DNA of 64,000 nucleotides from Armatimonadota bacterium (GTDB taxonomy: Bacteria > Armatimonadota > UBA5829 > DTJY01): contig DATKXU010000037.1 in NCBI GenBank assembly GCA_035528905.1, positions 7,860 through 71,859 of the forward strand, read 5' to 3'. The notes under the pieces were generated by a model. The model was given only the letters and a program-made list of their open reading frames with translations. It ran no database searches and was not told where the DNA came from. Each line of letters opens with the position of its first letter. Position 1 is the first letter of the stretch. The translations under genes and the position numbers were made by a program. This document shows positions 3,318 through 47,493 of this stretch, piece after piece.

Positions 3318-4037
3318 TCAACTCCTTTGATCCCTATCCCCAGTATTGGGCCTGGCAGCCCTTCTCGTTACCAGGTATGTGAGCGCAGCAGCGAAGACCG
3401 CCAGCGCTGCAACAAACGAAAGAGCCAAAGCGCCAGGTCTTCTCCATCCGCTCTGCGTGGGCCTTTGTGCAATTCCGGTGGGAGGCAGTCCCAGGGTCTC
3501 GAACTTGGCGTCCTTCACGATCACGGTGTATTCGTAGGTATTAGTGCCACGTTTGAGCGAAATCTTGACGTACTTGTTTTCGTAATCCTCCAAGCCGTGG
3601 AATGTGAAACTCGGAGGCACGACGTAGATGATCTTCATCGTCCTCAGACGTCTCAGAGGCTTGACGATGGGCTCGACAGGCAGGACTCCAGACTCAAGCT
3701 TGATCGCTTCGGGTGTCATGAACGTAACAGACGTCATGGGATTCTCGGGCGGCGCAGACAAGGTCTCGTCCGAGATGTCGACATTCGCAGCACTCCAGCC
3801 TGTCTCGGACAGCAGTTGCCACAGTTGATGCTCCGCTTCGCTCCTCGCAATAACCTTAGCGTAGGTTACGGATACCCAATGCCCTCCCTGGTTTCTGGCG
3901 TCTACCCACACAATCACATCCGGCGCCGGGCTAGCAGGCTGACTTGCAGCGGAGAAAGCACCGCTCGGCGCAATCAGCGTGAGTGACAGAGCAGCCAGTG
4001 CGCACCGTATGATGATTCCAGTAAGTGCCCGACTCAT
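3318..4037 (-). CDS. Hypothetical secreted protein (signal peptide)
   Basis: The ORF-track ORF 3318..4316 runs through a tRNA-Ala gene, so it was trimmed to the internal ATG at 4035-4037. The trimmed product begins MSRALTGIIIRCALAALSLTLIAPSGAFSAAS, a signal peptide, and shows no recognisable family. Confidence 0.45.
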   Translation of the reverse strand: MSRALTGIIIRCALAALSLTLIAPSGAFSAASQPASPAPDVIVWVDARNQGGHWVSVTYAKVIARSEAEHQLWQLLSETGWSAANVDISDETLSAPPENPMTSVTFMTPEAIKLESGVLPVEPIVKPLRRLRTMKIIYVVPPSFTFHGLEDYENKYVKISLKRGTNTYEYTVIVKDAKFETLGLPPTGIAQRPTQSGWRRPGALALSFVAALAVFAAALTYLVTRRAARPNTGDRDQRS

Positions 4038-4093
4038 CGTATGAGATGCCTCTGTGCGGGCGGCCCCGACCCGCAGCTCAGATGGCACAAAAA

Positions 4094-4168
4094 TGGTGGA
4101 GCTGATGGGAGTCGAACCCACGGCCTCTTCCATGCCAAGGAAGCGCTCTCCCACTGAGCTACAGCCCC
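4094..4168 (-). tRNA. tRNA-Ala(GGC)
   Basis: Reverse complement: GGGGCTGTAGCTCAGTGGGAGAGCGCTTCCTTGGCATGGAAGAGGCCGTGGGTTCGACTCCCATCAGCTCCACCA. It has a G3:U70 pair, an anticodon loop UUGGCAU (anticodon GGC), a T-loop GGTTCGA and a CCA end. Confidence 0.85.
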
Positions 4169-4295: not shown

Positions 4296-4323
4296 TTGAC
4301 AACCCGAGCAGAACATGTATGAT
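4296..4323 (+). promoter_or_regulatory. Sigma70-like promoter (TTGACA-16 nt-TATGAT) upstream of the Lrp-like gene
   Basis: TTGACA is at 4296-4301 and TATGAT at 4318-4323, separated by a 16-nt spacer. The element lies about 45 nt upstream of the ATG at 4370. Confidence 0.4.
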
Positions 4324-4369
4324 GGTAGGCACAGCGTCCAAACGTTGACTATCAGGGAGGTGTGGCGGC

Positions 4370-4651
4370 ATGGTGACCGCGATTGTTCTGATAACCGCAG
4401 AGAGAATGAGCATCCCGGAGACAGCGGAGACGCTGGCCGAGATCGAAGGAGTGGCGGAAGTCTATTCCGTATCGGGCGAGTTCGACATTGTGGCTATACT
4501 TCGGGTGCGTCAGTACGAGGAATTGGCGAGTCTAGTGACGGAGCGACTGCTGAAGATTCCCACGATAACGCGGACTCAAACCCACATGGCGTTTCAGGCG
4601 TACTCGAAGCACGACCTGGAGCGCATATTCGGGATCGGCGCAGAAGTGTAG
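4370..4651 (+). CDS. Lrp/AsnC-type ligand-binding (RAM) domain protein, stand-alone small regulator
   Basis: The 93-aa product (SIPETAETLAEIEGVAEVYSVSGEFDIVAILRVRQYEELASLV) resembles the AsnC_trans_reg C-terminal domain. A GGGAGG ribosome-binding site precedes the ATG. Confidence 0.55.
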   Translation: MVTAIVLITAERMSIPETAETLAEIEGVAEVYSVSGEFDIVAILRVRQYEELASLVTERLLKIPTITRTQTHMAFQAYSKHDLERIFGIGAEV

Positions 4652-4713
4652 GGACTGTCAGCGGTCAACTGTGGAAAGTATTCTCTTGCTTATGCGTAGG
4701 CCTACCAGCTACA

Positions 4714-4810
4714 TGGCGGGAGTGTGTGGGAATCGAACCCACCCAGGACACTCTTCATGCCCTACACAGGTTTTGAAGACCAGGAGAGCCACCAGGCCCC
4801 ATCCACTCCC
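4714..4810 (-). tRNA. selC: tRNA-Sec (selC), anticodon UCA, 97 nt
   Basis: Reverse complement: GGGAGTGGATGGGGCCTGGTGGCTCTCCTGGTCTTCAAAACCTGTGTAGGGCATGAAGAGTGTCCTGGGTGGGTTCGATTCCCACACACTCCCGCCA. The anticodon loop CUUCAAA matches E. coli selC (ggaCTTCAAAtcc). It has a long variable arm (GGGCA/TGTCC stem), a T-loop GGTTCGATTCC, discriminator G and a CCA end. Its length is consistent with tRNA-Sec, and it lies adjacent to selA. Confidence 0.75.
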
Positions 4811-4923
4811 GAATAAGTCCGCATACACAGTATACGCGGGGTCATAGAGGGAGTCAAGTCGGGCGGGCTGCCCCGGCGCACAACTGCGGAAGGCCGCCTG
4901 CATATCCTCGGGGGTTGCAACTC

Positions 4924-5604
4924 TCAGTTTGCCTGTGGGTAGTCCGGACCTTGCTGCGCCTGTTCCAGCTCTTCTGGCAGCTCAACTCGCTGGGCTTGCA
5001 CGACCGCGAGGAACGCCTCCACAACAATGGAATCGAACTGCGTGCCTGCGCTTCCTCGGAGTTCGTCCAGCGCCTCATCAAGCCGCATAGCATCTCGCCA
5101 GGGCACATCCGATACGAGCATATCGAACGTCTCTGCAACGGCAATGATGCGCGCGCCAAGGGGGATCTCATGACCTTTCAACCCGTCGGGATATCCCTTC
5201 CCATCGAACCTCTCATGGTGGTGCTTTATCATTGGCAGGCAGGGCTTCAACTCCTCGACGCGCTCAAGCATTCTGATCGCAATTGTGCTATGAAGGCGCA
5301 TGATCTCGAACTCGCGGTCTGTCAGCCGGCCGAGCTTCTCGACGATTTGTTTGGAGATGCCAACCTTTCCGATGTCATGCAGGATAGCGGCACGCCTGAG
5401 CGCAACTAGTTCCTTTTGCGGAAGATCGAGATGCTTGCCCATTGAAACTGCGTAGGCAGCCACACGATCACTGTGTCCGTCCGGTGCTCCCAGGCTCGCC
5501 GACCTCAGGTTCAACATTCCCATGAGGGCTTGTGTTTCGGATTTGATCGTCGGGGGCGTCGGGACATCAGGCTCAGGGTCTTCCGCCAGTCTCTTCATCA
5601 ACAT
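4924..5604 (-). CDS. HD-GYP domain phosphohydrolase (putative c-di-GMP phosphodiesterase)
   Basis: The translation carries LHDIGK...HHERFDGKGYPDGL, i.e. the HD and GYP motifs. Start is the ATG at 5602-5604. Confidence 0.75.
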   Translation of the reverse strand: MLMKRLAEDPEPDVPTPPTIKSETQALMGMLNLRSASLGAPDGHSDRVAAYAVSMGKHLDLPQKELVALRRAAILHDIGKVGISKQIVEKLGRLTDREFEIMRLHSTIAIRMLERVEELKPCLPMIKHHHERFDGKGYPDGLKGHEIPLGARIIAVAETFDMLVSDVPWRDAMRLDEALDELRGSAGTQFDSIVVEAFLAVVQAQRVELPEELEQAQQGPDYPQAN

Positions 5605-5668
5605 TCGTCATCTCCTCTACAGATTCATACGTTTTTAATTATCGGCTCGGAGTAGCACTGACAGGAGA

Positions 5669-7081
5669 CTACGGGCGGAAAATTTCCTCTGCGGCGCGGA
5701 CTATGTGCTGGATCTCGTTGTCTTCGATGGTTCGCAGGTCCAGAAGGAATCGGTCATCCGCCACCCTGCCAAAGATTGGCGGTTCGGCCATACGAAACGC
5801 CTTGGCAAGGTCCGCAGCGCTCATGCGGACGGATGAGATCGCGAGGAGCTTTGTCGGCAGGTGCTCGCCAGGCAGCGATCCACCGCCGATCTCCGAGAGC
5901 CCGTCGGTTACCTCGGCCCCCGCTCTGTCTGCAGCAACCCTGGTGATTGCCCGCCGCAAGCGCGTCGCTGAGCGATTAATATCCGCCAGCGACCGGCTGA
6001 TGAATCTAAGCGTGGGGACAGCACTCTGGAGAGTCTCGGGATCGGTGTAAAGCCTAAGGGTGCTCTCCAAGGCGGCGACGGTCAGTTTGTCGATACGAAG
6101 AGCTCGCGCCATCGGATTTCCAGCCATGGCACCCACAACCTGCCCTCGCCCGACGATGAGGCCGGCCTGCGGGCCGCCGAGAAGTTTGTCTCCGCTGAAC
6201 ATCACGACATCCGCCCCAGCCTTGACGCTGTCCTGCACGAGCGGCTCGCCTCTTAGCCCAAAGCGCGTTACATCCACCAGTGCGCCGCTTCCAAGGTCTT
6301 CCGCGACCGGGATATTGCAGCGGCGCCCGAGTTGTACCAAGTCGCCGATGGGGACTTCACTCGTGAAGCCGACGATGCGGAAGTTGCTCGTGTGCACGCG
6401 CAGTATCAAGGCCGTCTGATCGGAGATGGCAGCCTCGTAGTCGTCCAGGCGGGTGTGGTTCGTCGTTCCCACCTCTACCAACCGCGCACCTGATCGAGCC
6501 ATTATGTCAGGGAGCCTGAATGAACCCCCGATCTCTACTAACTGCCCTCGTGAGACTATGACTTCCTTACCGTTCGCTAGCGTATTCAGAGCCAGCATGA
6601 CGGCGGCTGCATTGTTATTCACAGCGAATCCGGCTTCCGCGCCGCATAGCTCGGCTAGGAGCTTGCTGAAGTGTATATCCCGCGAGCCTCGACCGCCGGT
6701 CTCCAGGTTGGTCTCGAGGTTCGAGTGACCGGCAGCGACGGCATTCAGCGCCGCGAGAGTCGCTTCTGGCAGCACAGCACGGCCCAGACCGGTATGCAAG
6801 ATGACTCCGGTTCCGTTGATTGCTTTTCGAAGCGATGGACTGCTGAGCCGCAGTGCCAGGTCACGGGCCTGGTCCGCTATGCGTTTGGGCGATAGATCCT
6901 CCGCCGTCGGCATCGGGCCGTCCAAGACTCTGTTGCGAAGTTCATCGAGAGTTTGACGCACGGCGGTGACAACCGTGCTGCGGGGAACTCGCCCTGCCAA
7001 CTCCTTCAGAGCCGCGGTGTTCAGCAGTCTATCCACGGCCGGCAAGCTTCGCACAACCTCACGCGCCGTGTCCTTGGTCAT
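5669..7081 (-). CDS. selA: L-seryl-tRNA(Sec) selenium transferase (selenocysteine synthase)
   Basis: The 470-aa product carries SelA signatures (GTGVILHTGLGRA, FSGDKLLGGPQAGLIVG) in a PLP-dependent fold. Start is the ATG at 7079-7081, preceded by AGGAG. Confidence 0.9.
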   Translation of the reverse strand: MTKDTAREVVRSLPAVDRLLNTAALKELAGRVPRSTVVTAVRQTLDELRNRVLDGPMPTAEDLSPKRIADQARDLALRLSSPSLRKAINGTGVILHTGLGRAVLPEATLAALNAVAAGHSNLETNLETGGRGSRDIHFSKLLAELCGAEAGFAVNNNAAAVMLALNTLANGKEVIVSRGQLVEIGGSFRLPDIMARSGARLVEVGTTNHTRLDDYEAAISDQTALILRVHTSNFRIVGFTSEVPIGDLVQLGRRCNIPVAEDLGSGALVDVTRFGLRGEPLVQDSVKAGADVVMFSGDKLLGGPQAGLIVGRGQVVGAMAGNPMARALRIDKLTVAALESTLRLYTDPETLQSAVPTLRFISRSLADINRSATRLRRAITRVAADRAGAEVTDGLSEIGGGSLPGEHLPTKLLAISSVRMSAADLAKAFRMAEPPIFGRVADDRFLLDLRTIEDNEIQHIVRAAEEIFRP

Positions 7082-7204: not shown

Positions 7205-7540
7205 TCAGCGCTCGGTCTTCCCGGGCCCTGGCGGGGCTGCGCTCATATCCTTGATCTTCTGCTCGAGAGCGGCTATTCTGGTTTCCAGCGCTGCGATCTG
7301 GGTCCGATCCGCGACACCGATTTCCTTGAGCGTGTCCCTTATTTGCGCGCGGATACGCTCATTCAGCTTGCGGCGTTCTTCCTCGGTGCGGCACATCAGC
7401 TCTTCGTACATCTTCCTGCCTTCTTCAGCGGTGATTTCGCCGCGCTTCACCAGATCGTCTACCACCTCCCTTATCTTATCCGCAGACACGGCGGCCGCTC
7501 CAAGACCAAATAGCAGCAGCTTGCGAAGTGTCTCAAACAT
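7205..7540 (-). CDS. Phasin-like protein (COG3937, PHA-granule regulator family)
   Basis: The product MFETLRKLLLFGLGAAAVSADKIREVVDDLVKRGEITAEEGRKMYEEL... is coiled-coil rich. Start is the ATG at 7538-7540, preceded by GGAGG. The 5' extension in the ORF track has no ribosome-binding site. Confidence 0.5.
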   Translation of the reverse strand: MFETLRKLLLFGLGAAAVSADKIREVVDDLVKRGEITAEEGRKMYEELMCRTEEERRKLNERIRAQIRDTLKEIGVADRTQIAALETRIAALEQKIKDMSAAPPGPGKTER

Positions 7541-7628: not shown

Positions 7629-8138
7629 TCAGTCGCGGCGCCAGTTGACTCGCAACAGCTTCGTATCCCGCGACCACTTGTACTCAACGTCTCCCGAATA
7701 CGACTTCCGCACGGCCCGGCCCAGCTTCTGCGCAAGCTTCTCGTTTGTCGTGAGCACGACCAGCCCAGCGTCAGACCGCTCTATATCCATTATACGCGCC
7801 AGGGGATTGGTTTGCATTGCCCTCCGGTTTTCGCGATTCAGGAGATTTACTATCTCACGCTCATGATGCTCCAGGAACGCACCGGAGAGGGCAAGCACGC
7901 CGCCGGGCAAACGGTCCTTTATCTTCCGGCAGCCCGGACACAATGTATCCACTAGGCGTTTCGCTCGTGCCAGATCGCGCGCCGCCTGACTCTCCAGCTC
8001 CCACCTGTGGCCTGCGTATACGGAGCGGCACTCCCGGCAGATTGCAACTTCATCGGGCTTCAAGTCCAGAAGGTAGGGGTCACCGGATGTCTTCACATTC
8101 CTGCGAATACGGACCAGCTTTTTGCGTGAGGTGATCAC
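7629..8138 (-). CDS. Zinc-ribbon protein with paired CxxC motifs (NMD3-like; function unknown)
   Basis: Two CxxC pairs are present: CRECRSVY...CPGCRKIK. The likely start is a GTG that sits 8 nt downstream of AGGAGG; the N-terminal part of the longer ORF-track version is low-complexity. The family assignment is tentative. Confidence 0.4.
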   Translation of the reverse strand: MITSRKKLVRIRRNVKTSGDPYLLDLKPDEVAICRECRSVYAGHRWELESQAARDLARAKRLVDTLCPGCRKIKDRLPGGVLALSGAFLEHHEREIVNLLNRENRRAMQTNPLARIMDIERSDAGLVVLTTNEKLAQKLGRAVRKSYSGDVEYKWSRDTKLLRVNWRRD

Positions 8139-9018: not shown

Positions 9019-9918
9019 CTACCTTACGGCAGATCCGCGAGCGCCTCCCGTTACCGGCAGAAGTGCCACACTGAACTTGCTATCCAGCGCCACAGCCGTA
9101 AAGCTCTTCTGCGGCTGCTCCCCACTGCCGCTCTCGGGCATCTCAACGGGGACAGCTACTGTGGACTTTGTGGTGCCCTGGGCTGAAATGAGAATCCCTC
9201 TATCCACAGAGAAAAGCAAGTCGGCCCGTCCTTCCTGGCTGCCGCGCGGAGTGGCAGAGCCATTCGAACCACCGGGGTTTATCGGCGTGCTCATGATCTG
9301 CTTTATCCTTGCCACACGCCCGTCTGTGGTGGACTCCACCTTCTCGAGCGTGAACCCAAGTTTGAGCCTGGACATCGAGTCGAAGGGCAGAGGCAGCTCC
9401 GCCGCCCAGGTGCCGCCGATATCCACTGGCTTGTCCGGCAGAACAGCCATGAGCACAATTGATTCTATGGATCCGAAATCCAGCGGAGAACGCTGCTGGC
9501 CTGATCCTTCGCCTTGCCTGCCGGTGCTGATGACTTTCCCCGTCGGCGTTATCCGGATCTTGCGAATGTCCTTAGGCGCCTCATAGCTGGGCACAGGCTT
9601 ACCATCCATCTTGAGACTTGCGGCCTCGGTGGCGATTTCGAGGTCCATACATCCGTCCGCAAGAGCCTGTACGCAGCGCACGCGGATAATCGAGGTAAGC
9701 TCGGCGTCAATAGGCAAGGCCACGGACGCACCGGGGAGCCAGCGTGTGCCGGTGAGCCGCTGCGAAATCTGGTATCTTGCAGCGGTGCCAGGAGCGAACC
9801 TGTACGCGAGCTGGACAGCACTCGACGGCGGCTGTGTGTTCTGCGAGTACAGAGGTAAGCTGCCGATCAGGGCGAGCGCACTGAATACCGCCAGCATAGG
9901 AAGTGTTCTGCATCTCAT
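9019..9918 (-). CDS. Hypothetical secreted protein
   Basis: The internal ATG at 9916-9918 gives the N-terminus MRCRTLPMLAVFSALALIGSLPLYSQ, a signal peptide. No family was recognised. Confidence 0.45.
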   Translation of the reverse strand: MRCRTLPMLAVFSALALIGSLPLYSQNTQPPSSAVQLAYRFAPGTAARYQISQRLTGTRWLPGASVALPIDAELTSIIRVRCVQALADGCMDLEIATEAASLKMDGKPVPSYEAPKDIRKIRITPTGKVISTGRQGEGSGQQRSPLDFGSIESIVLMAVLPDKPVDIGGTWAAELPLPFDSMSRLKLGFTLEKVESTTDGRVARIKQIMSTPINPGGSNGSATPRGSQEGRADLLFSVDRGILISAQGTTKSTVAVPVEMPESGSGEQPQKSFTAVALDSKFSVALLPVTGGARGSAVR

Positions 9919-10022
9919 GGCGCCTATTATATCCGCCTGCAAGCACTCGGTCAAGGCATGGAGATGGTTTCGATTGCGCTCGTGTCGGCAAGAATATAGT
10001 GAATCAGAAACGAGAGAGGTGG

Positions 10023-10463
10023 ATGGTCCGAGTGCTCTGGAAAGTCTTCGCAACGGTGCTGCTCGTGGCTGTCGCGGTGGGCATTTTTGTCGAGCATGCG
10101 GTCACGAACATCCAGATTCGCACGATTGCCAGTGCTCGCTCCGGCACGACTAGGGGAGGCGCAGTTGCGCTTCGGGGCACCATCACGTTCGCACAAGATA
10201 ACCGGTTCATCCTCGAAGATGGCACGGGGAGGGTCGAGCTGTCCACTTGCCCACTGTGGTACAGGCGGGTTCCCTTGCGCGAAGGTGACTGCGTCACGGC
10301 CGTGGGAGAGGTGATGAGCAATCCGTCGTTACATACCAGGTGCGACTTTGTCCTGAGCGTGTACAAGGTCTTTCGCGGCGGGGAGGTCATCCAGGTTCGC
10401 AGGGGACCGGGGAAGCCGCCGTGGATGAGCTATCGGCCTCCTGGGGCTGCGGCAGCCCTTTGA
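10023..10463 (+). CDS. Membrane-anchored OB-fold protein (BOF/YgiW-like)
   Basis: The N-terminus MVRVLWKVFATVLLVAVAVGIFV forms a membrane anchor. It is followed by a beta-rich region similar to YgiW/BOF OB-fold proteins. Start is the ATG at 10023. Confidence 0.4.
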   Translation: MVRVLWKVFATVLLVAVAVGIFVEHAVTNIQIRTIASARSGTTRGGAVALRGTITFAQDNRFILEDGTGRVELSTCPLWYRRVPLREGDCVTAVGEVMSNPSLHTRCDFVLSVYKVFRGGEVIQVRRGPGKPPWMSYRPPGAAAAL

Positions 10464-11959
10464 ACGAAGAAGACCCTCTTCATCCGTTTTACAACTTCTC
10501 CACCTGCGTCGAGCGCTCGGAGCAGCGCAACATGCTCACCTTCCGGCCAGTTTTCGATGTTCAGAGAGAACACATGTCCGGGAGTGTTGCTCGCGGCCCT
10601 GAACTGCCCATCCAGGTAGAGACAGGTTAAGCGCACCCGTTCCAGGTCGAAGCCGGTCAGCTTAAGTTCAAGACTCACAGTGGGTCCTGTGACAATCGTG
10701 CCGCTCTTGAGCGCTCTCGCGCGGCACGCATTGAGATATGACAGTCTGCCTCGCTCAATCTCTGCCTGTATCCACTCCGCCGAGAAGACGGGAAACCGAA
10801 TGCGAATGTCGGTGACCGGCCCACCGGGCAGCGTCATCAGAGCACCGTCCGACCTGCCGACGAGCGCCGGCAGCGGTCTCCAGCCGGAGTTGGACGTCCT
10901 AACATCCACTCGAAAAGAGTTCTCCTCATGTGCCTGGTCGTTCGCAAGGCCGATGCATCCGAAGAACAGCGGAGGCGTCCCCTCAAGCCACGGGGCTTCA
11001 GGAGAAGCTGGCCCGACCACCAGGATTTGCGCCACTTCCTTTGCAGCGCGGGCATGGCGAGACGGCTGAAGCATGAATCCGCCGCGTGTCTCCCTGGAGG
11101 AGCCGTCTCTCGCCCCTGGGACGATAGGCGCGGTGGAAATCGTCACCACACCAGCATGATTCGTGTTTATCCGCCCCACCCCAGTATAAGCGGTTGCGTC
11201 AAAGCGCCCGATACCCGTGACCGGACGTTCCACCTGCCCTAGGAGTTCTTCGCCATCCGCGTAGACGGCCTGAACACGGCCGCCCCGACGGTTCTGCACG
11301 ACTATTTCCTTCGGATAGCGCGCCGGGATGCAGACCAGGATCACAAGCTCGTCCCCATCCCTTGGGACGTACCTGCGGGGCATGGGCGTCTGGATGCCGT
11401 CTCTCACTAGCAGCACAGCATTCCCGACAAACGGCGAGAGGTTGCGGAGAATCGCCTCGCCCGCGGGTATGTCCGTCACAATGCCCGACGCGCCAGCTAT
11501 GTGCCCGCCGAACCCCTTTGGAGCTACGGCAAACTCCTTCGGGAGGATGCTGATCATTCGAGCATCTTCCCTGCGGCAGCCTCGGTCACCGCTTACCTTG
11601 ATCCGTATCCCGTGGACTGCAGTTGCCGCCACTGTGCCGGGCAACGCGTAGACGCTGGCGGAAAAGCCTTGAACGGTCGTAGTTGCAGGGCGTGTAACAG
11701 TCCCCACGCGGCAATAGGGCTGGCCCTCGCCGGCCGCGCACACTTCCACCGGGCCGCCCTCCCGATTGGCTACCCGAATCCGGTATAGCTCCCGCATCTC
11801 CGGCGGCTGTGCGCAAACCGATGGGAGAAGCCATACCCAGATGCAGAGGACTGCCGGCCACACTATATGGCGTGAACAAGGACACGGCGCTGGTCCTTTG
11901 CGATTGGAGACGTTCCGTAGAGGCTGCATCTTCATTGGGCTATTCCGAAACCGCGTCAT
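10430..11959 (-). CDS. Hypothetical secreted protein (509 aa)
   Basis: The N-terminal region is hydrophobic (WPAVLCIWVWLLPSVCAQ). No family was recognised. The gene converges on and slightly overlaps the 10023..10463 gene. Confidence 0.45.
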   Translation of the reverse strand: MTRFRNSPMKMQPLRNVSNRKGPAPCPCSRHIVWPAVLCIWVWLLPSVCAQPPEMRELYRIRVANREGGPVEVCAAGEGQPYCRVGTVTRPATTTVQGFSASVYALPGTVAATAVHGIRIKVSGDRGCRREDARMISILPKEFAVAPKGFGGHIAGASGIVTDIPAGEAILRNLSPFVGNAVLLVRDGIQTPMPRRYVPRDGDELVILVCIPARYPKEIVVQNRRGGRVQAVYADGEELLGQVERPVTGIGRFDATAYTGVGRINTNHAGVVTISTAPIVPGARDGSSRETRGGFMLQPSRHARAAKEVAQILVVGPASPEAPWLEGTPPLFFGCIGLANDQAHEENSFRVDVRTSNSGWRPLPALVGRSDGALMTLPGGPVTDIRIRFPVFSAEWIQAEIERGRLSYLNACRARALKSGTIVTGPTVSLELKLTGFDLERVRLTCLYLDGQFRAASNTPGHVFSLNIENWPEGEHVALLRALDAGGEVVKRMKRVFFVQRAAAAPGGR

Positions 11960-13490: not shown

Positions 13491-15368
13491 TTACATGCGT
13501 TGGTGGCTGCCGGACATCGCTGCACTAGCCCCCGCTGGCCGAATGATGATAGTTGCGGGATACGCCGAGCCGGACAGCGGCATTGTGCGCAATGACACGG
13601 TTCTGCTCCTGCCCGGCGGCACCGTAATCGTCCCTATGGTCGCTTCACGCAGCGACTGAAGCCACCTGACGTGCACCGGACTCCCGTTAAGGAAAAAGAC
13701 GCCACTGGCAAGCCCTGCGGTGGCCTCGAACGCGATCTCTACGTTGTGCGGACGATCAAGCGGGTTCTCCAAAGTGGCCTCAATGTCGTAAATCACCCCG
13801 TAATTCCCCTGGAGCTGTCTGTCCTGCGTCGCGTGTGTTAGCGCTTCCTTTCCTATTCTCACGAACAGCCAAGGCTTCCCGGCGGTGTACGTTACCGCCA
13901 GATTCTTCATCGGACCCGGATATACGTGATCCGACGTCGCCAGCTTCGATGGTTCGACGCCGACCGCAGGAACAGTAATGCCGCACTGGTCGTGCATCAG
14001 GCGCTCGCTCTCCGGCTTCGCCATGACTCGCACGAACACAGGATCACCGGACAATTGGCGCAGCTCCATGAGGCCGCTCGCGGTGCGCAAAGCATCCAGA
14101 CTCTGGCTCACCAACGCCTGCCGCGCTCTGGGCGGCAGCTCTATCACACGGCCTATATTCTTCCGGTGGTTGTCCAGGAACTCAGAGCCGGCTCTGTACC
14201 CGACGGCCACGGTATCAAGCATAGGCCATGACACCCCTTCTACAATGTGCAGAGTGGCAGCAGACGGCCATGGATTCACCACATCTATCACAAAGCCTAT
14301 CCGCTTCTTCATCCTGTTCTGGTGGTGGTACAGCAGCCTGGTGGCTCCCTCGGAGGGGGATATCCTGCCTACAAAGAGGGCCTGGTATTTCAATATGCTT
14401 TCCGGGTGGTTGCTGTACATGATGTGGGAAGCCTGCACACGCGGCAGAATCCGGTTTTCGACCTCGACCTGAACGGCGAGTTTTGTCGGAATGTAGTCGC
14501 CGCCGGCCACTTGAACCTCGACGGGCATCTGAACTACATTGCCGGGAGACAGCCCCACACCGGCCTGCGAGACGTTCGCAGAGATTAACCTTGCCCCGGG
14601 TTCGAGAGAGATCGCCCGGGTCACCGCTTCAGCGGCAGCCTGGGAAACGAGAGACGGCGGTGCATTCCAACCCGTCACGACGGCCTTCGCTGCCGTTGTA
14701 GTCTTGTACGCTGCGTACTTCCTGACGGAGACTCGAAGCGGGACGGAGTACTCTTGACAGCGGATTGTGATGGCGGCGTCTCCCGGAGAAGCGCCTGTCA
14801 CGATGAGAGACCCCGGCTTTGACAGGCCGTCTACGGATATTACCAACGGGTTGGAAACATCTGCCTCTACCGGCGCAGTCAGCAGCGAGTGCACGGTCAC
14901 AGCGCGGGCCTCGCCCAGCGGTATGAGCAGCGAGGACGGAGTCACCATCAGCGGAGGCAGCGACAGGGCCTCTCGCAGGCTTTGGGTCCACTTCTCCGCC
15001 AGTTTCGCGCTGGAGGTGTTCTGAGCCTTGGCTTCGGCGGCGGTTGCGATCACCAACAGTGAATCGCCGACCATGACACGCGCATCGGCGCCGGACTGCT
15101 TACACCATAGGGTCTTCGGATCAAGGCCCCTCTGGACGAGCGAAGCGAGTCGGCCGGCAACAATCTTGGCACGCTGGCCCGGAGATAGGGAGCCGTTCGA
15201 GACCTTGAGCTGCACGGCCCTCTGTCGGTTGACGATTATACACGCCGCTCCATCCGCGTCCTTTTGCACGCTGATGCGAGGAACAAACTTGGCCGACGCC
15301 GAAGATGCCAGCGCGGCGCTGACTAGAATGCATGTAACGAACAAACCTGGTAATCGTGGCGCGCGCAT
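13491..15368 (-). CDS. Hypothetical secreted multidomain protein (625 aa)
   Basis: The N-terminus MRAPRLPGLFVTCILVSAALASSASA is a signal peptide. No confident family assignment could be made. Confidence 0.45.
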   Translation of the reverse strand: MRAPRLPGLFVTCILVSAALASSASAKFVPRISVQKDADGAACIIVNRQRAVQLKVSNGSLSPGQRAKIVAGRLASLVQRGLDPKTLWCKQSGADARVMVGDSLLVIATAAEAKAQNTSSAKLAEKWTQSLREALSLPPLMVTPSSLLIPLGEARAVTVHSLLTAPVEADVSNPLVISVDGLSKPGSLIVTGASPGDAAITIRCQEYSVPLRVSVRKYAAYKTTTAAKAVVTGWNAPPSLVSQAAAEAVTRAISLEPGARLISANVSQAGVGLSPGNVVQMPVEVQVAGGDYIPTKLAVQVEVENRILPRVQASHIMYSNHPESILKYQALFVGRISPSEGATRLLYHHQNRMKKRIGFVIDVVNPWPSAATLHIVEGVSWPMLDTVAVGYRAGSEFLDNHRKNIGRVIELPPRARQALVSQSLDALRTASGLMELRQLSGDPVFVRVMAKPESERLMHDQCGITVPAVGVEPSKLATSDHVYPGPMKNLAVTYTAGKPWLFVRIGKEALTHATQDRQLQGNYGVIYDIEATLENPLDRPHNVEIAFEATAGLASGVFFLNGSPVHVRWLQSLREATIGTITVPPGRSRTVSLRTMPLSGSAYPATIIIRPAGASAAMSGSHQRM

Positions 15369-22378: not shown

Positions 22379-22506
22379 TCGTATAACTCCATTTCGCGGC
22401 TTCCTGCAGTTTAGCATGCGCGCAATTCAGAGTCAACCGATAGCGAATGGTTTACATGAGGGCGGCGAGCAGTATACAATAGTGCGATTGCACGTCTGGA
22501 GAGGTC

Positions 22507-23061
22507 ATGGAGTATCATCAGCTCGATGTCGGCGAAGCTTTCTTCGACGAAATAGTGCGCAAGCGGCAGGAATCGGGAGCGGAGGTCGTCATGGTAATAC
22601 AGCGTCCCTCGGCAAAGGTACTGCTGCTGACCAAGGAGTTCTATCCGGCGGGCGTCTACCGGCTTCCCAGCGGCATGATAAAGAGGGGCGAAACGCCGGA
22701 GCAAGCTCTGATACGCGAGGCTTGGGAAGAGACGGGCCTTGCGGTGAAGGCCGTTCGCCGACTCGGCGTGATACGTTACATAATCGAGGCAGAGTCCAGG
22801 CGCACCGATTTCCGCTCCTACGTCATGCTCACGGACGAAACCGCCGGAGCGCCCTCGCCCCAGGATCGGCAGGAGTCAATCGCCGGGTTCCGCGAGGTCA
22901 ATCCCTGTGATTTGCGCGAGGTTGCTTCTGAGCTTTACGCCCTGCCTGAGCCTTGGCATGACTGGGGACGATTCCGTGCCATGGCCCACAACTCCGTATA
23001 TCGCCTGATGTGTCCGACTAGCCCGGCTCGGAAGGATTCACCGACGGCGCACAGCGGTTGA
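22507..23061 (+). CDS. NUDIX hydrolase
   Basis: The Nudix box GMIKRGETPEQALIREAWEETGL is present. Confidence 0.8.
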   Translation: MEYHQLDVGEAFFDEIVRKRQESGAEVVMVIQRPSAKVLLLTKEFYPAGVYRLPSGMIKRGETPEQALIREAWEETGLAVKAVRRLGVIRYIIEAESRRTDFRSYVMLTDETAGAPSPQDRQESIAGFREVNPCDLREVASELYALPEPWHDWGRFRAMAHNSVYRLMCPTSPARKDSPTAHSG

Positions 23062-33614: not shown

Positions 33615-33652
33615 TAGAGAAATCTAGCAGATTCGCCCATGGGGTGACTGGT

Positions 33653-35698
33653 ATGAGACGGAAATCGCCGGACGAGCGGAAAGCCAGGTACGAAAAACTG
33701 ATCCTCGGGCCGCCGGGCATCACCGCCGTGAGCGACCACGCCCTGGCACACGAAGAGTATTACCTCGACACCTTCGATTTGACATACCGGCTGGGGCCGG
33801 TCCTCGACATCATCCGCCATCCGAAAACCCGCACGCCGATGTGCATCGCCGTTTACGGCGGCTGGGGCACCGGCAAGACCTCCGCCATGAAGTGGCTCCA
33901 CGGCCTGCTGGAAGACTCGAATAAGTCGGGCACCTCCGAAGCCAAAATGAGGGTGAAGCCGGTCTGGTTCTTTCCGTGGAAGTACCGCAGCAAGGAGGAT
34001 GTCTGGCGGGGCCTCATCTCCGAAGTCATAATCAACAGCATAGATGTGAGCAAGGCCAACCGCGTGACCATCGCCAACGCAGCTAAGCAGTTTGGGATGT
34101 TCCTGGGGAGGGGTTTCGTCCACGTGATGGCAGGCCTGACGCTCAAGGCCAAGGCTCCGACAGGGGCGGGCGAAGCAGAACTGGACCTGTCGCGGCTTGA
34201 GGACATAATTGCTGAATACCGCGAAATCTCTCACCCCGAGAAAGCTTACCTGAACGAATTCGAGTCGTCCCTCCAAAACTGGGTGTCGAGCACTCTCCTT
34301 CGCAACGAGCGCATGGTTATCTTCATTGACGATCTCGACCGGTGCATGCCGGATGTGGCGTTGGAGGTGCTGGAGGCGCTGAAGCTCTACCTCAACATCG
34401 AGAAGCTCGTGTTCGTGGTCGGCGTTGACCAAAAAGTCATTGATCCGCTGGTGAGCGAATACTACAAGCGACTCGGGCTGCCGGGCGACAAGAGCAAGGA
34501 CTACCTGGCGAAGATGTTCCAGATAGAGGTCGAGCTCGCGCCTCACGAAAGGCAGATCAGCGGTTTCCTGGACCAGCAACTGGAAACCATCGAGTACTGG
34601 CGGAAGCACCTGGAGGACTACGAGCGCGATATCTTCCGGAAGGCGATACTGCAGCTTGCCGAGCAGAATCCGCGCGAGGTCAAGCGCCTCATCAACAGCG
34701 CGCTGATGGCGGGCGCCGGGTGGCTGATGCTGACCGAACCCGGCAGCGAGGAGAATGAGATAGGCTTCAACCAGGCGCTCCAGTACTTCTTTATCCGCAA
34801 GGTTCTGGACGTGGGGTACACCAGGGCATCGCTTCTCACGACCGACCTGGGCGATCGGTTCTTCAGGGAGTGGTCGGAGATCGTGTCGAGCCGCAGAGAC
34901 AACGAGCACTTCCCGCGCACCCTGGATGTCCCGAAATCATTCATCGAGCAGCAGCGCGCCAGCGCCGGCAAGCGCCCCGGCACAGCAACGGACGAGGAAA
35001 AGCCCTCGGCCGAAACCAAACCCTCCGACTTCGATCCCACGCAGGTTGCAGGCGGTGTCTACTACAGCATCCTGACGAACAGCCTGTATACGGACTTGCT
35101 TCCGCTCCTGGCGGATGAACTACTCGGAGAGCTGATGCAAATTCCGTACCCGGCGGAGACGAAGGCGATCAGCGCTGCCATCGGCACGGCAAAGGACGCC
35201 GAGATCATTCGCGAGGCCGTTGCCCGTGAGCTAGGAAAGAAGCCGGACCAATTGAGGGCTGAGGATTACGCCAATCTGGAGGCGCTTAATCTCAGAGACA
35301 CCCAGGTGAGTGACGTCGAGCCGCTCAGGGGGCTCACCAATCTGGAGGCGCTTAATCTCAGAGACACCCAGGTGAGTGACGCCGAGCCGCTGAGTCGCCT
35401 CACCAATCTGCAGGAACTCAGTCTCTCGAGCACACGGGTGAGCGACATCGAGCCGCTGAGTCGCCTCACCAATCTGCAGGATCTTGGTCTCACTGACACC
35501 CAGGTGAGCGACATCGAGCCGCTCAGGGGGCTCACCAACCTGCAGGAGCTCCGTCTCTCGGGCACCCAGGTGAGCGACATCGAGCCGCTCAGGGGGCTCA
35601 CCAACCTGCAGGAGCTCTATCTCTCCGGCACCCAGGTGAGCAAGGAACAGGTGAAGTCCCTTAAGGAAGCGCTGCCCGGTCTAAAAATCACGGTGTGA
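33653..35698 (+). CDS. KAP-family P-loop NTPase fused to C-terminal leucine-rich repeats
   Basis: The Walker A motif is CIAVYGGWGTGKTS and the KAP-type Walker B is VIFIDDLDRC. The C-terminus carries six 22-aa LRR units of the form LTNLQELxLSxTQVSDIEPLxG. Confidence 0.8.
   Translation: MRRKSPDERKARYEKLILGPPGITAVSDHALAHEEYYLDTFDLTYRLGPVLDIIRHPKTRTPMCIAVYGGWGTGKTSAMKWLHGLLEDSNKSGTSEAKMRVKPVWFFPWKYRSKEDVWRGLISEVIINSIDVSKANRVTIANAAKQFGMFLGRGFVHVMAGLTLKAKAPTGAGEAELDLSRLEDIIAEYREISHPEKAYLNEFESSLQNWVSSTLLRNERMVIFIDDLDRCMPDVALEVLEALKLYLNIEKLVFVVGVDQKVIDPLVSEYYKRLGLPGDKSKDYLAKMFQIEVELAPHERQISGFLDQQLETIEYWRKHLEDYERDIFRKAILQLAEQNPREVKRLINSALMAGAGWLMLTEPGSEENEIGFNQALQYFFIRKVLDVGYTRASLLTTDLGDRFFREWSEIVSSRRDNEHFPRTLDVPKSFIEQQRASAGKRPGTATDEEKPSAETKPSDFDPTQVAGGVYYSILTNSLYTDLLPLLADELLGELMQIPYPAETKAISAAIGTAKDAEIIREAVARELGKKPDQLRAEDYANLEALNLRDTQVSDVEPLRGLTNLEALNLRDTQVSDAEPLSRLTNLQELSLSSTRVSDIEPLSRLTNLQDLGLTDTQVSDIEPLRGLTNLQELRLSGTQVSDIEPLRGLTNLQELYLSGTQVSKEQVKSLKEALPGLKITV
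35279..35650 (+). repeat. Six tandem 66-bp near-identical repeats encoding the LRR units
   Basis: The repeats start at 35279, 35345, 35411, 35477, 35543 and 35609. Neighbouring copies differ at only a few positions. Confidence 0.75.
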
Positions 35699-42040: not shown

Positions 42041-42175
42041 GCCTTTATTATCGAGATGCCGGATGGCCCTCTATTCGGCCTATGGTAACAAACCAGTCGC
42101 ATGTCGTCAAACATAAGCCGCCGGACACGGAGCGTCTGCCATCCGGGAACAATGGGTGGGCATAGGTCATGCCCC

Positions 42176-42892
42176 TCAGGGTTCCTGCATCATCCGGCGG
42201 AACTCAGGCGGGATTTCGAGCTTCGCAGTCCCGGCAGTGCATACATCAATCGCCTCCGCTATTCCATGCAGGCGATGGTATGGAACCGTTACGATGAGCT
42301 CGTCCGGCTTGTAAGGCTTGGATCGCCTGGCTGTCCAGTCAAGGAAGGTGACGTTGATCTCCCCGGATACCAGCGGGTACGCCACGGCCATGTGGCACGC
42401 GGAACCGATCATCTCCATCTTCGGCGAGATGCCATCCCAGTAGGCTGCAAGCTGGATCAGGCGGCAAGCCTGCTCAGCGTTCACGATGAACAGACCCAGG
42501 TCGGGCATCTGCTCGGCTTTCTCCATCGGCGCGAGGATCACATTCTCGGCCAGTCCAAGCGGCGGCTGAGAAGCAAGCATCATCGCCCGGTTGAAGACAG
42601 CAATCGAGCAGAAGAGCTTCTCCCCATGAACGAGGAACTTCTTGAGCGCCTTGTCTGCCTCTCCCGCGGCTCTGGGCGCCAGCCCGAGATGCCATGCTCC
42701 CCCGGCGCAGGCCGCGTTCTCCTTCGTCAGGTTGATAGTCTTGCCATCGCGAGCATCGAGGAAAGCCTTGCACGCCCAATGTTTTCCCGGCTCAGCGTCC
42801 CTCGCGGGTTCCATGGAATACGTGATCGCGACAGGGCTGCCCTTCAGATTCAGAACGCCCTTCAGCCTTTGGGAGTACTCCTGCCACTTCAT
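42176..42892 (-). CDS. DUF169-domain protein
   Basis: The product MKWQEYSQRLKGVLNLKGSPVAITY... matches the DUF169 (COG2043) N-terminus. Start is the ATG at 42890-42892, with GGAGG 7 nt upstream; the longer ORF-track version is a 5' extension. Confidence 0.55.
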   Translation of the reverse strand: MKWQEYSQRLKGVLNLKGSPVAITYSMEPARDAEPGKHWACKAFLDARDGKTINLTKENAACAGGAWHLGLAPRAAGEADKALKKFLVHGEKLFCSIAVFNRAMMLASQPPLGLAENVILAPMEKAEQMPDLGLFIVNAEQACRLIQLAAYWDGISPKMEMIGSACHMAVAYPLVSGEINVTFLDWTARRSKPYKPDELIVTVPYHRLHGIAEAIDVCTAGTAKLEIPPEFRRMMQEP

Positions 42893-43126
42893 ATCTTCGC
42901 CTCCGAGTTCCATAGTGTGCACAGCTTCCATAACGTTCGCACAGTGGTCTGTTTCGACATACGATCTCTCACAAGCCCGACACCGCTCGGAGTATAGCAC
43001 AGTTGCGCTGCGCCGGTAAACGGCGATGTGGTTTTAGGGACCGCATGCACGCGGTAAACTAGCCACGTGGGCTACTATATGGTGCCCGGCAATAGGTGGC
43101 ACTCACCAGCAAATGGAGGCAGCAGA

Positions 43127-45656: not shown

Positions 45657-45725
45657 GCTGCACAGGTTCCAATTGCCGCACGAACGGGTAAAAGTAGCTA
45701 AACAGAGAGAAGGAGGCTGCGGTCA

Positions 45726-46094
45726 ATGACAGACGCGATGGAACAGAGACGGTACATGATGCGATACGTTCTGCCGATTCTGGGGGCTGTCTGGGCAGCC
45801 ATCATCATGCGGCGGCGTGCAAGACGCTGGGCTGGCGCCGAGCAATCAAAGGAAGCAATGCTTCTCAGGCAGTCCAACCTCGATCTCCACGACGCAGTAA
45901 GCAGAGCACTGAAATACGTCCCCGGGACGCCGGTGGAAGTCGAGCTTGGCGAAGAGCACGGCATGCCTGTCTGGGAAGTCGAAATCGTCCCCAGAAAAGG
46001 CGGACCCAATAGAGAAGTGCTGGTGGATGCCAAGACCGGGGATGTACTGGAGATGAAAGCCGAGATCGGCGAGGCTCCCGCTTCTGGAGAGTGA
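45726..46094 (+). CDS. PepSY-domain protein
   Basis: The C-terminus PVEVELGEEHGMPVWEVEIVPRKGGPNREVLVDAKTGDVLE is a PepSY fold. An N-terminal hydrophobic helix is present. Confidence 0.55.
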   Translation: MTDAMEQRRYMMRYVLPILGAVWAAIIMRRRARRWAGAEQSKEAMLLRQSNLDLHDAVSRALKYVPGTPVEVELGEEHGMPVWEVEIVPRKGGPNREVLVDAKTGDVLEMKAEIGEAPASGE

Positions 46095-47032
46095 CTGCAT
46101 TGATAGTGACTGTGACGCTGAATCCGGCTGTAGACGAGACTCTCACCGTCCAGCGTCTTCAACTCGGGGAGACAAACCGGATTCACGAGACAGACATAGA
46201 CCCCGGCGGCAAGGGACTGAATGTAGGCCGGGCCGTGAAGCGCCTGGGACGGCCGGCGGTTGTGATAGCATTCGTCGGCGGCGAGACAGGCCAATTCATC
46301 AGGAACCGCCTCGAACGAGAGAACGTCGAAACAGACCTGGTAGAGATCGAGGAGCCCACTCGCGTGAACATCAGTGTCCTCGATGAATCCACCGGCATCC
46401 AGACAAACCTGCATCACGACGGCCCGACTGTCGGCCCGGCCGACCTGCACGCTGTAGAGGCCAAAATCGAGGAGTGGCTGCCGGAGGCGGTTGTGGCGGT
46501 TCTGGGAGGCAGCCTGCCGCCGGGGGCGCCGGCCGATACCTACGCCCGTCTCATTGAATCGCTGCGGGCAAATGACGTGAGGACGATCCTGGACACCAGC
46601 GGGGCGGCATTGGCCGAGGGCATCAAGGCCCGCCCCCATATGATCAAGCCGAACCTTCGTGAGGCCCGCGAGCTTCTTGGGCGCACAATCGAGACGGACG
46701 AGGATGTACTGCAGGCGGCGCGCGAGCTGGTGGACCGAGGCGTCGGCGCCGTCGTCTTGTCTATGGGGAGGAGAGGCGCAATCGCGGCAAGTCCCGAAGG
46801 CGCATGGAAAGCCGTCCCTCCCGAGGTTACCACGGACAGCACAATCGGCGCGGGCGACTCTATGGTTGCCGGCCTTGCCATAGGCGTATACGAGCATTCG
46901 AGTCTGGCTGAGGGCTTGGCGCTTGGAACGGCCGCCGCTGCTGCGACCGTCACGACGCCGGGCACTGAACTCTGCCGTGCCGAGGATGTCCAGGCCCTTC
47001 TGCCAAGAGTAAAGGTGGAACGACTTCAATGA
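46091..47032 (+). CDS. 1-phosphofructokinase / PfkB-family hexose-phosphate kinase
   Basis: VTLNPAVDETL and DTSGAAL are present, together with the C-terminal GAGDSMVAG motif. The GTG start overlaps the upstream stop. Confidence 0.8.
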   Translation: MTALIVTVTLNPAVDETLTVQRLQLGETNRIHETDIDPGGKGLNVGRAVKRLGRPAVVIAFVGGETGQFIRNRLERENVETDLVEIEEPTRVNISVLDESTGIQTNLHHDGPTVGPADLHAVEAKIEEWLPEAVVAVLGGSLPPGAPADTYARLIESLRANDVRTILDTSGAALAEGIKARPHMIKPNLREARELLGRTIETDEDVLQAARELVDRGVGAVVLSMGRRGAIAASPEGAWKAVPPEVTTDSTIGAGDSMVAGLAIGVYEHSSLAEGLALGTAAAAATVTTPGTELCRAEDVQALLPRVKVERLQ

Positions 47033-47493
47033 TGCATAACCGGTTGATCCGGAAGATCCTGCTCGCAACCGACGGATCCGAACTCGCCATGCGTGCCGGC
47101 CGCTATGCCGCAGAGATAGCGGGATGCACTGGAGCGGACGTGACCATCTTGAATACAGCCGAGGTATCGGGCGTCACGGAATTCGTCACCTATTCAATCG
47201 AAGCCGGCAGGAAGCCTTCCCAGCAGCGGGAAACCGGTGAGGACATCGTCGAGAAGGCCAGAAAGCCGTTTCTCGACACAGGCGTGCCAACGCACACCAA
47301 GATTATAGAAGGCTATGCGGCGGAGGTTATCCTGGGAGAGGCGGAGGACGGCAAGTATGACCTGATCGTAATGGGAAGCCGTGGTGCCGGTATGGGACTC
47401 ATCAGGCGGGTAGTCTTCGGCCTCGGCAGCGTCGCCGAGCGGGTCATCGCCAACGCGCCCTGCCCAGTTCTCGTAGTGCGGGGTGAAGACTAA
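47029..47493 (+). CDS. Universal stress protein (UspA family)
   Basis: The product carries ILLATDGSELA...VMGSRGAGMGLIRRVVFGLGSVAERVIANAPCPVLVV. Confidence 0.8.
   Translation: MMHNRLIRKILLATDGSELAMRAGRYAAEIAGCTGADVTILNTAEVSGVTEFVTYSIEAGRKPSQQRETGEDIVEKARKPFLDTGVPTHTKIIEGYAAEVILGEAEDGKYDLIVMGSRGAGMGLIRRVVFGLGSVAERVIANAPCPVLVVRGED

Follow-up and report, generated by a model that had tools for sequence, protein, structure and literature searches.

A selenocysteine tRNA gene with its own predicted promoter lies downstream of selA in DNA of an Armatimonadota-like bacterium

We analysed a stretch of 64,000 nucleotides (64 kb, hereafter called the window) from an uncultured bacterium; among genomes, an Armatimonadota MAG is its nearest relative. 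We conclude, with very little doubt, that the minus strand of positions 4714..4810 is the functional selC gene of this organism and encodes its selenocysteine tRNA (tRNA-Sec). This identification had already been made in a first-pass annotation of the DNA. Two independent tRNA finders support it, and so do the geometry of the cloverleaf, the covariation seen among relatives and the full-length selA next to the gene. The family has long been known, the gene is an ordinary representative of it, and standard tRNA finders detect it at once; in this sense it is already known.

ARAGORN calls two tRNAs in the 64-kb window, namely a tRNA-SeC at exactly 4714..4810(-), whose anticodon tca starts at position 35, and a tRNA-Ala(GGC) at 4094..4168(-). 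An Rfam scan, run with gathering thresholds and with E values based on 64 kb, both strands and 4227 families, returns two matches only. One is to the tRNA-Sec family RF01852, which covers 4718..4810(-) with 74.1 bits against a gathering threshold of 47 (E = 2.6e-13), is aligned end to end (model positions 1-91 of 91) and outscores the general tRNA model within the tRNA clan. The other is to RF00005 and falls on the tRNA-Ala. Both finders thus agree with the first-pass annotation, which had described a tRNA-Sec of 97 nt on the minus strand; no tRNA-Ser, no pseudogene, no empty result and no other assignment of the anticodon loop came out of the searches. The minus strand of the gene, CCA included, reads GGGAGTGGATGGGGCCTGGTGGCTCTCCTGGTCTTCAAAACCTGTGTAGGGCATGAAGAGTGTCCTGGGTGGGTTCGATTCCCACACACTCCCGCCA.

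The sequence was parsed into a cloverleaf that was anchored on the anticodon and T loops (Table 1). The anticodon UCA occupies tRNA positions 35-37 (window 4774..4776), and both the parse and an alignment show that the loop around it, CUUCAAA, is identical to that of E. coli selC, as had been claimed. The extended variable arm that had been described is also found: the anticodon and T stems are separated by 23 nt, which fold into a stem of 8 bp with a loop of 5 nt. The discriminator G and the encoded CCA are both present. The acceptor 5' strand is joined to the D stem by the linker AU. The 8/5 acceptor/T-stem geometry, which had been recommended as a check, is found as 8 + 5 levels on both strands: the composite acceptor/T helix has 13 levels, made up of 12 standard pairs and one G.A, and G73 follows the T loop as the 14th base. 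The stems contain two non-Watson-Crick positions, the G.A at acceptor level 8 and a U.U at the second level of the anticodon stem. A single-sequence minimum free energy (MFE) fold does not yield the cloverleaf and is marginally better than shuffles (z = -1.85). Weak single-sequence MFE folding is common for tRNAs, and we therefore relied on the covariance model and on comparative tests.

Table 1. Position of selC, its structural parts, its putative promoter and the neighbouring genes in the window.
Feature	Position	Strand	Details
tRNA-Sec (selC)	4714..4810	-	ARAGORN, RF01852, cloverleaf parse, covariation
Acceptor 5' strand	4803..4810	-	GGGAGUGG, tRNA positions 1-8; levels 1-7 Watson-Crick, level 8 G opposite A
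D arm	4785..4800	-	6-bp stem GGGGCC/GGCUCU with two G.U pairs; 4-nt loop UGGU
Anticodon arm	4767..4783	-	5-level stem CUGGU/ACCUG with one U.U; loop CUUCAAA (7 nt)
Variable arm	4743..4765	-	23 nt; 8-bp stem, 5-nt loop
T arm	4726..4742	-	5-bp stem GUGGG/CCCAC; loop UUCGAUU
Acceptor 3' strand	4718..4725	-	ACACUCCC; from the parse
Discriminator and CCA	4714..4717	-	G73 at 4717, encoded CCA at 4714..4716; from the parse
Promoter-like site, sigma-70 type	4829..4857	-	TTGACT-17 nt-TATACT; 10/12 positions matched
selA	5669..7081	-	L-seryl-tRNA(Sec) selenium transferase, 470 aa; Pfam SelA 488.8 bits plus N-terminal Se-cys_synth_N
HD_5 / HD-GYP-like phosphohydrolase gene	4924..5604	-	226 aa, between selA and selC; Pfam HD_5 140 bits
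AsnC-type ligand-binding-domain gene	4370..4651	+	93 aa, convergent; called in public annotations
tRNA-Ala(GGC)	4094..4168	-	about 545 nt downstream of selC; ARAGORN, RF00005

The comparative test was done on an alignment of 24 diverse 97-nt sequences (A2), which was scored against the explicit 8/5 cloverleaf. Standard pairs fill 92.2% of the cells, compared to 45-53% in controls with the 3' partners shifted by 1-3 columns, and 21 of the 32 pairs show changes on both sides. On none of the measures were the observed values reached by any of 500 shuffles. Both-side changes are seen in all eight pairs of the variable arm and in 7/8 pairs of the acceptor, where levels 1-7 pair and six of these have changed on both sides, while level 8 is non-Watson-Crick in 20/24 sequences. 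The D stem is paired in 100% of its cells, with five of its six pairs changed on both sides, and the T stem is also paired in 100% of its cells (24/24 relatives). The anticodon arm was fixed by the search pattern and gives no covariation information in this sample. This pattern of compensatory change indicates that selC is under structure-preserving selection. It also bears on the register of the helix. The Rfam model, which is of the 9/4 type, aligned selC with G8 pairing to C85 and A86 bulged. This register is kept in only 17/24 relatives, compared to 24/24 for the T-stem pair 69:85. We therefore prefer an 8/5 fold with a non-canonical level 8, and the other register would be possible for this one molecule.

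To what extent the two mismatches are shared was surveyed in two samples. The first was anchored on SelA and comprises 80 loci from species-representative genomes plus five contigs with an identical SelA. Of the genome loci obtained in this way, 14 have an ARAGORN tRNA-Sec in the neighbourhood of selA (13 of the 80 plus L081-L083, the window organism's own contigs). An alignment of 14 rows (A1: the window, 12 of these genome tRNA-Secs and E. coli selC) shows a non-Watson-Crick level 8 (G.A, A.G or A.C) in 10 rows; level 8 is paired in L002, L006 and E. coli, and L057 is unparsable. For the second sample, metagenome contigs were searched for exact copies of the 19-nt anticodon stem-loop, U.U included. 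This 19-mer occurs on at least 119 contigs, and ARAGORN calls a tRNA-SeC in 74/80 listed loci that carry it. Among the matches listed, 81 distinct tRNAs could be parsed, in which level 8 is G.C in 26, G.A in 23 and U.A in nine, the rest being various; G.A is thus the second most common combination. G73 is present in 78 and an encoded CCA in 51 of these 81 tRNAs. Given the occurrence of the U.U on at least 119 contigs and the 20/24 relatives in which level 8 is non-Watson-Crick, we take the mismatches as normal: from these comparisons, the level-8 G.A and the U.U in the anticodon stem are tolerated, lineage-typical variation and no defects. In two loci, L133 and L169, the 5' half of a tRNA-Sec with the same anticodon stem-loop is present, but neither a T arm nor an acceptor 3' strand can be recognised. 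These could be truncated copies that mobile elements have perhaps left behind where they integrated; in E. coli, selC is known as a hot spot of integration.

Upstream of selC, the promoter-like site listed in Table 1 is the only sigma-70-like site in 4300..5700 (shuffle mean 0.4), and its -10 hexamer ends 18 nt before the 5' end of the tRNA. In the clade alignment the TTGAC of the -35 element lines up in 10/11 loci (it is TTGCC in L095) and is followed about 17 nt later by a TATACT-like -10 element, which is exactly TATACT in 5/11 loci. The -35/-10 pair is the one conserved feature upstream of selC in this alignment, and we predict that selC has its own conserved promoter. An intrinsic terminator for selC was not detected.

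A full-length selA on the same strand precedes selC at a distance of about 860 nt. The SelA protein scores 580.5 bits against the NCBIfam equivalog TIGR00474, with a cut-off of 267.9, and covers positions 2-453 of 455. selA is also found within a few kb of the tRNA-Sec in 17 metagenome loci. The order selA, HD gene, tRNA-Sec and tRNA-Ala(GGC) is repeated in the Armatimonadota MAG (L001), whose SelA is 65% identical, and in the metagenomic relatives L183, L135, L187 and L138. An orthologue of the HD gene sits in the same position in L001 (5463..6143, 70% identical), L183, L135 and L187; this position is kept in all close relatives examined, with an amino acid identity of 70-78%. In other lineages, the HD gene is found there in one of 45 U.U-type loci that have at least 2.5 kb of upstream sequence. 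Its placement may reflect nothing more than synteny, or it may point to a link with the Sec genes that is specific to this lineage. A more far-reaching reading would be that the tRNA-Sec of this clade is a distinct structural subclass (12 standard pairs, a purine-purine level 8 and the fixed U.U) which has co-evolved with SelA and SelB, and that the HD-GYP-type phosphohydrolase is an unrecognised accessory or regulatory component of the Sec system. We regard this combined proposal as unlikely.

Some further features of the neighbourhood were recorded. The first-pass annotation had listed two ORFs, 4315..4776(+) and 4709..4903(-), as spurious overlaps of the tRNA. Both exist and both overlap it, and to call them spurious is reasonable, since the publicly called gene in this place is the 93-aa AsnC-type ORF in a different frame. 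The stop codon of 4315..4776(+) is the TGA at 4774..4776, the reverse complement of the anticodon TCA, and hence an ORF that ends inside the tRNA appears in the ORF track. Beyond the tRNA-Ala, the next gene is publicly called as 271 aa (3318..4133(-), start at 4133) and in this form overlaps the tRNA-Ala by 40 nt. An alternative call of 256 aa starts after the tRNA-Ala and avoids the overlap, so that the longer start at 4133 is probably an error; neither Pfam nor NCBIfam gives a match for the protein. Directly upstream of selA are genes for a BCAM0308-family protein (7629..8138(-); NCBIfam equivalog, 144 bits with a cut-off of 100) and a small phasin-like protein (7205..7539(-)), and we know of no link of either to selenium metabolism. 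In a large metagenomic subgroup (L086, L096, L101-L103, L107, L113, L116, L122, L128, L132, L137, L146, L147, L149, L154, L157, L164), the tRNA-Sec is accompanied by a tRNA-Pro(GGG) at a distance of a few hundred to about 2900 nt. The tRNA-Pro is upstream on the same strand in all of these loci but L147, where it is on the opposite strand. The tRNA-Secs of this subgroup mostly end in GCCU and not in an encoded GCCA, and their linkage to tRNA-Pro(GGG) differs from the linkage seen in the window's clade.

selC and selA are two of the four components required for Sec decoding (selA, selB, selC, selD). Neither selB nor selD nor a recognisable selenoprotein gene turned up among the ORFs of the 64-kb window, which were searched with Pfam and NCBIfam, or in the about 8.5 kb that precede the window on its 81.7-kb contig; this preceding stretch holds glycine-cleavage genes, a glycosyltransferase, a STAS gene and others, and no sel genes. 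Two ORFs that had been considered on account of their size, 13491..15368 (625 aa) as selB and 9019..10053 (344 aa) as selD, have no Pfam or NCBIfam match and were rejected. A scan of the window for in-frame TGA codons that join two sizeable frame blocks yielded no selenoprotein candidate that we could accept. Judged by position, nearly every candidate overlaps a confident gene that is read in a different frame or from the opposite strand, and the free-standing one, 22414..23037(-), has an implausible arginine-rich translation. The first-pass annotation had stated that the tRNA proves UGA recoding capacity. The tRNA together with selA strongly implies this capacity, but "proves" is too strong while selB, selD and a selenoprotein have not been found in the window and the about 8.5 kb before it. 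The Armatimonadota-like organism is probably a selenocysteine user.

Might the gene instead be a decaying pseudogene or relic of a tRNA-Sec, disabled by the G.A and the U.U, in a lineage where Sec use has been lost or is being lost? The two non-Watson-Crick appositions, the unremarkable single-sequence fold and the about 72 kb in which selB, selD and a selenoprotein gene were not seen would fit such a scenario. However, both mismatches are common to many independent lineages which have compensatory changes in their other stems, and the closest relative, with a SelA identity of 65%, carries the same two mismatches and yet has a re-paired variable arm. Moreover, the tRNA is conserved well beyond its surroundings. 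We aligned the tRNA of the window, together with 115 nt upstream and 65 nt downstream of the gene, with the corresponding DNA of 10 clade relatives. Inside the tRNA 79-88 of the 97 positions are identical to the window (81-91%), compared to 30-45 of 115 upstream and 14-26 of 65 downstream (about 22-40%), and the drop in identity falls exactly at the boundaries of the gene. The promoter is conserved as well, and the adjacent selA is full length and scores well above its equivalog cut-off. We therefore consider it very improbable that selC is a relic.

A second alternative is that the gene encodes a look-alike: a selC*-type tRNA-Cys(UCA), which would place cysteine at UGA, or an allo-tRNA that carries serine. 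These tRNAs resemble tRNA-Sec in the long variable arm and the 8-level acceptor and in some cases have the anticodon UCA as well (PMC7609411), and an 8/4-like register with a bulge can be drawn for this sequence alone. The selC* tRNA-Cys, however, has U73 and an 8/4 fold with a bulged A51a, and selB*/cysS* are found nearby (Mukai et al. 2017, as reviewed in PMC7609411), whereas in the window tRNA position 73 is G and not the U that marks tRNA-Cys, the T stem has 5 bp and no bulge, and the neighbouring gene is selA. Allo-tRNAs have a 12-bp acceptor domain in an 8/4 or 9/3 arrangement (PMC7609411). The window tRNA, in contrast, has 13 levels; its 5-bp T stem, including the outer pair, is kept in 24/24 relatives, and the 8/4-like register in 17/24. 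Finally, its D arm is of the 6-bp/4-nt type. A look-alike is thus extremely unlikely.

The 23 confident genes of the window end in TAG (13), TGA (6) and TAA (4). UGA is otherwise an ordinary stop codon in this genome and, since TGA ends six of the 23 genes, a tRNA with a UCA anticodon must act in a context-dependent manner. That selC is a general opal suppressor in a code where UGA has been reassigned as a sense codon is hardly conceivable: its anticodon UCA does read UGA, but the idea is effectively refuted by the stop-codon usage of these domain-complete genes and also conflicts with the adjacent selA and with the Sec-specific 13-level helix, D arm and long variable arm, which are not the 7/5 short-arm form of the known UGA-reassigning tRNAs.

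The bacterial Sec pathway is established knowledge, summarised in PMC5330540 and PMC7609411, and the sequence determinants for serylation, SelA conversion and SelB delivery are present; these three steps are predicted for the tRNA-Sec described here. The primary transcript would start about 11-12 nt upstream of the 5' end of selC, from its own promoter. RNase P would trim the 5' end, and the 3' end would be cut back to the encoded CCA to give the 97-nt tRNA. SerRS would then charge it with serine by way of G73 and the long variable arm. A SelA decamer is expected to read the 6-bp/4-nt D arm through its N-terminal domain, and this would be the neighbouring SelA, which would turn Ser-tRNA(Sec) into Sec-tRNA(Sec) using selenophosphate from SelD. 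The 13-level acceptor/T helix should be accepted by SelB.GTP and rejected by EF-Tu, and SelB would bring the tRNA exclusively to those UGA codons of selenoprotein mRNAs that precede a SECIS hairpin.

For the annotation of this DNA, these results mean that the region should be labelled selC and that the ORFs 4315..4776(+) and 4709..4903(-) should be discarded. Moreover, in-frame UGA should be permitted as Sec when candidate selenoprotein genes of this genome are called. The understanding of the Sec system itself is unchanged by this selC.

Elsewhere in the window, several long ORFs have no Pfam or NCBIfam match at E <= 0.001: 13491..15368(-) (625 aa), 45698..47068(-) (456 aa), 10430..11749(-) (439 aa), 42101..42997(+) (298 aa) and 9019..9897(-) (292 aa). 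Of the family-less ORFs, 10430..11749, 9019..9897 and 3318..4133, the latter with a disputed start, are called as genes in public contigs. A protein of 684 aa, encoded by 33644..35698(+), combines a KAP-family P-loop NTPase domain with C-terminal leucine-rich repeats, an unusual architecture in bacteria, and could be defence-related. A bacterial alpha-2-macroglobulin of 1550 aa (57831..62483(-)) and a TamB/AsmA-like protein of 1397 aa (51242..55435(+)) point to a diderm envelope, which fits an Armatimonadota-like organism.

How does this selC compare to known selenocysteine tRNAs? Bacterial tRNA-Secs adopt the 8/5 fold, in which the acceptor and T stems add up to a 13-level helix; their D stem has 6 bp and a loop of 4 nt, their variable arm is exceptionally long, base 73 is G, and the CCA is encoded in 93% of the bacterial genes (PMC5330540). 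All of these defining features are found in the selC of the window, with the level-8 G.A as the sole qualification, and the linkage to selA is shared with many bacteria. Bacterial tRNA-Secs tolerate deviations from a perfect 13-pair helix, as exemplified by the 12-bp acceptor/T helix of the Cloacimonetes and Epsilonproteobacteria types, by bulges and by minor 8/4 forms (PMC5330540, PMC7609411). Compared to these variants, the window tRNA keeps 13 nt on both strands, has G73 at the position expected for 13 levels and needs no bulge; it departs from the standard in the pairing of level 8 alone.

The closest relative is the Armatimonadota MAG (DASRZD010000096), whose tRNA-Sec shares 86/97 nt, the level-8 G.A and the U.U. 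This tRNA-Sec differs in its variable-arm stem, which is re-paired by compensatory changes, in one G.U in the acceptor stem and in its flanking intergenic DNA, which is essentially unrelated apart from the promoter boxes. The E. coli selC used as the reference is the annotated tRNA-Sec in 5425/5426 complete E. coli genomes. It shares with the window tRNA the loop CUUCAAA, the 8-nt acceptor strands, the 2-nt linker, the 6-bp D stem with its 4-nt loop, the long variable arm, the 5-bp T stem, G73 and the encoded CCA. The window tRNA differs from it by G.A instead of C-G at level 8, by one U.U in the anticodon stem, by a variable arm of 23 instead of 21 nt, by a total length of 97 instead of 95 nt and by AU instead of GU at positions 8-9. 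Judged by the alignments, all of these differences from E. coli selC are within the natural variation of the other bacteria analysed here.
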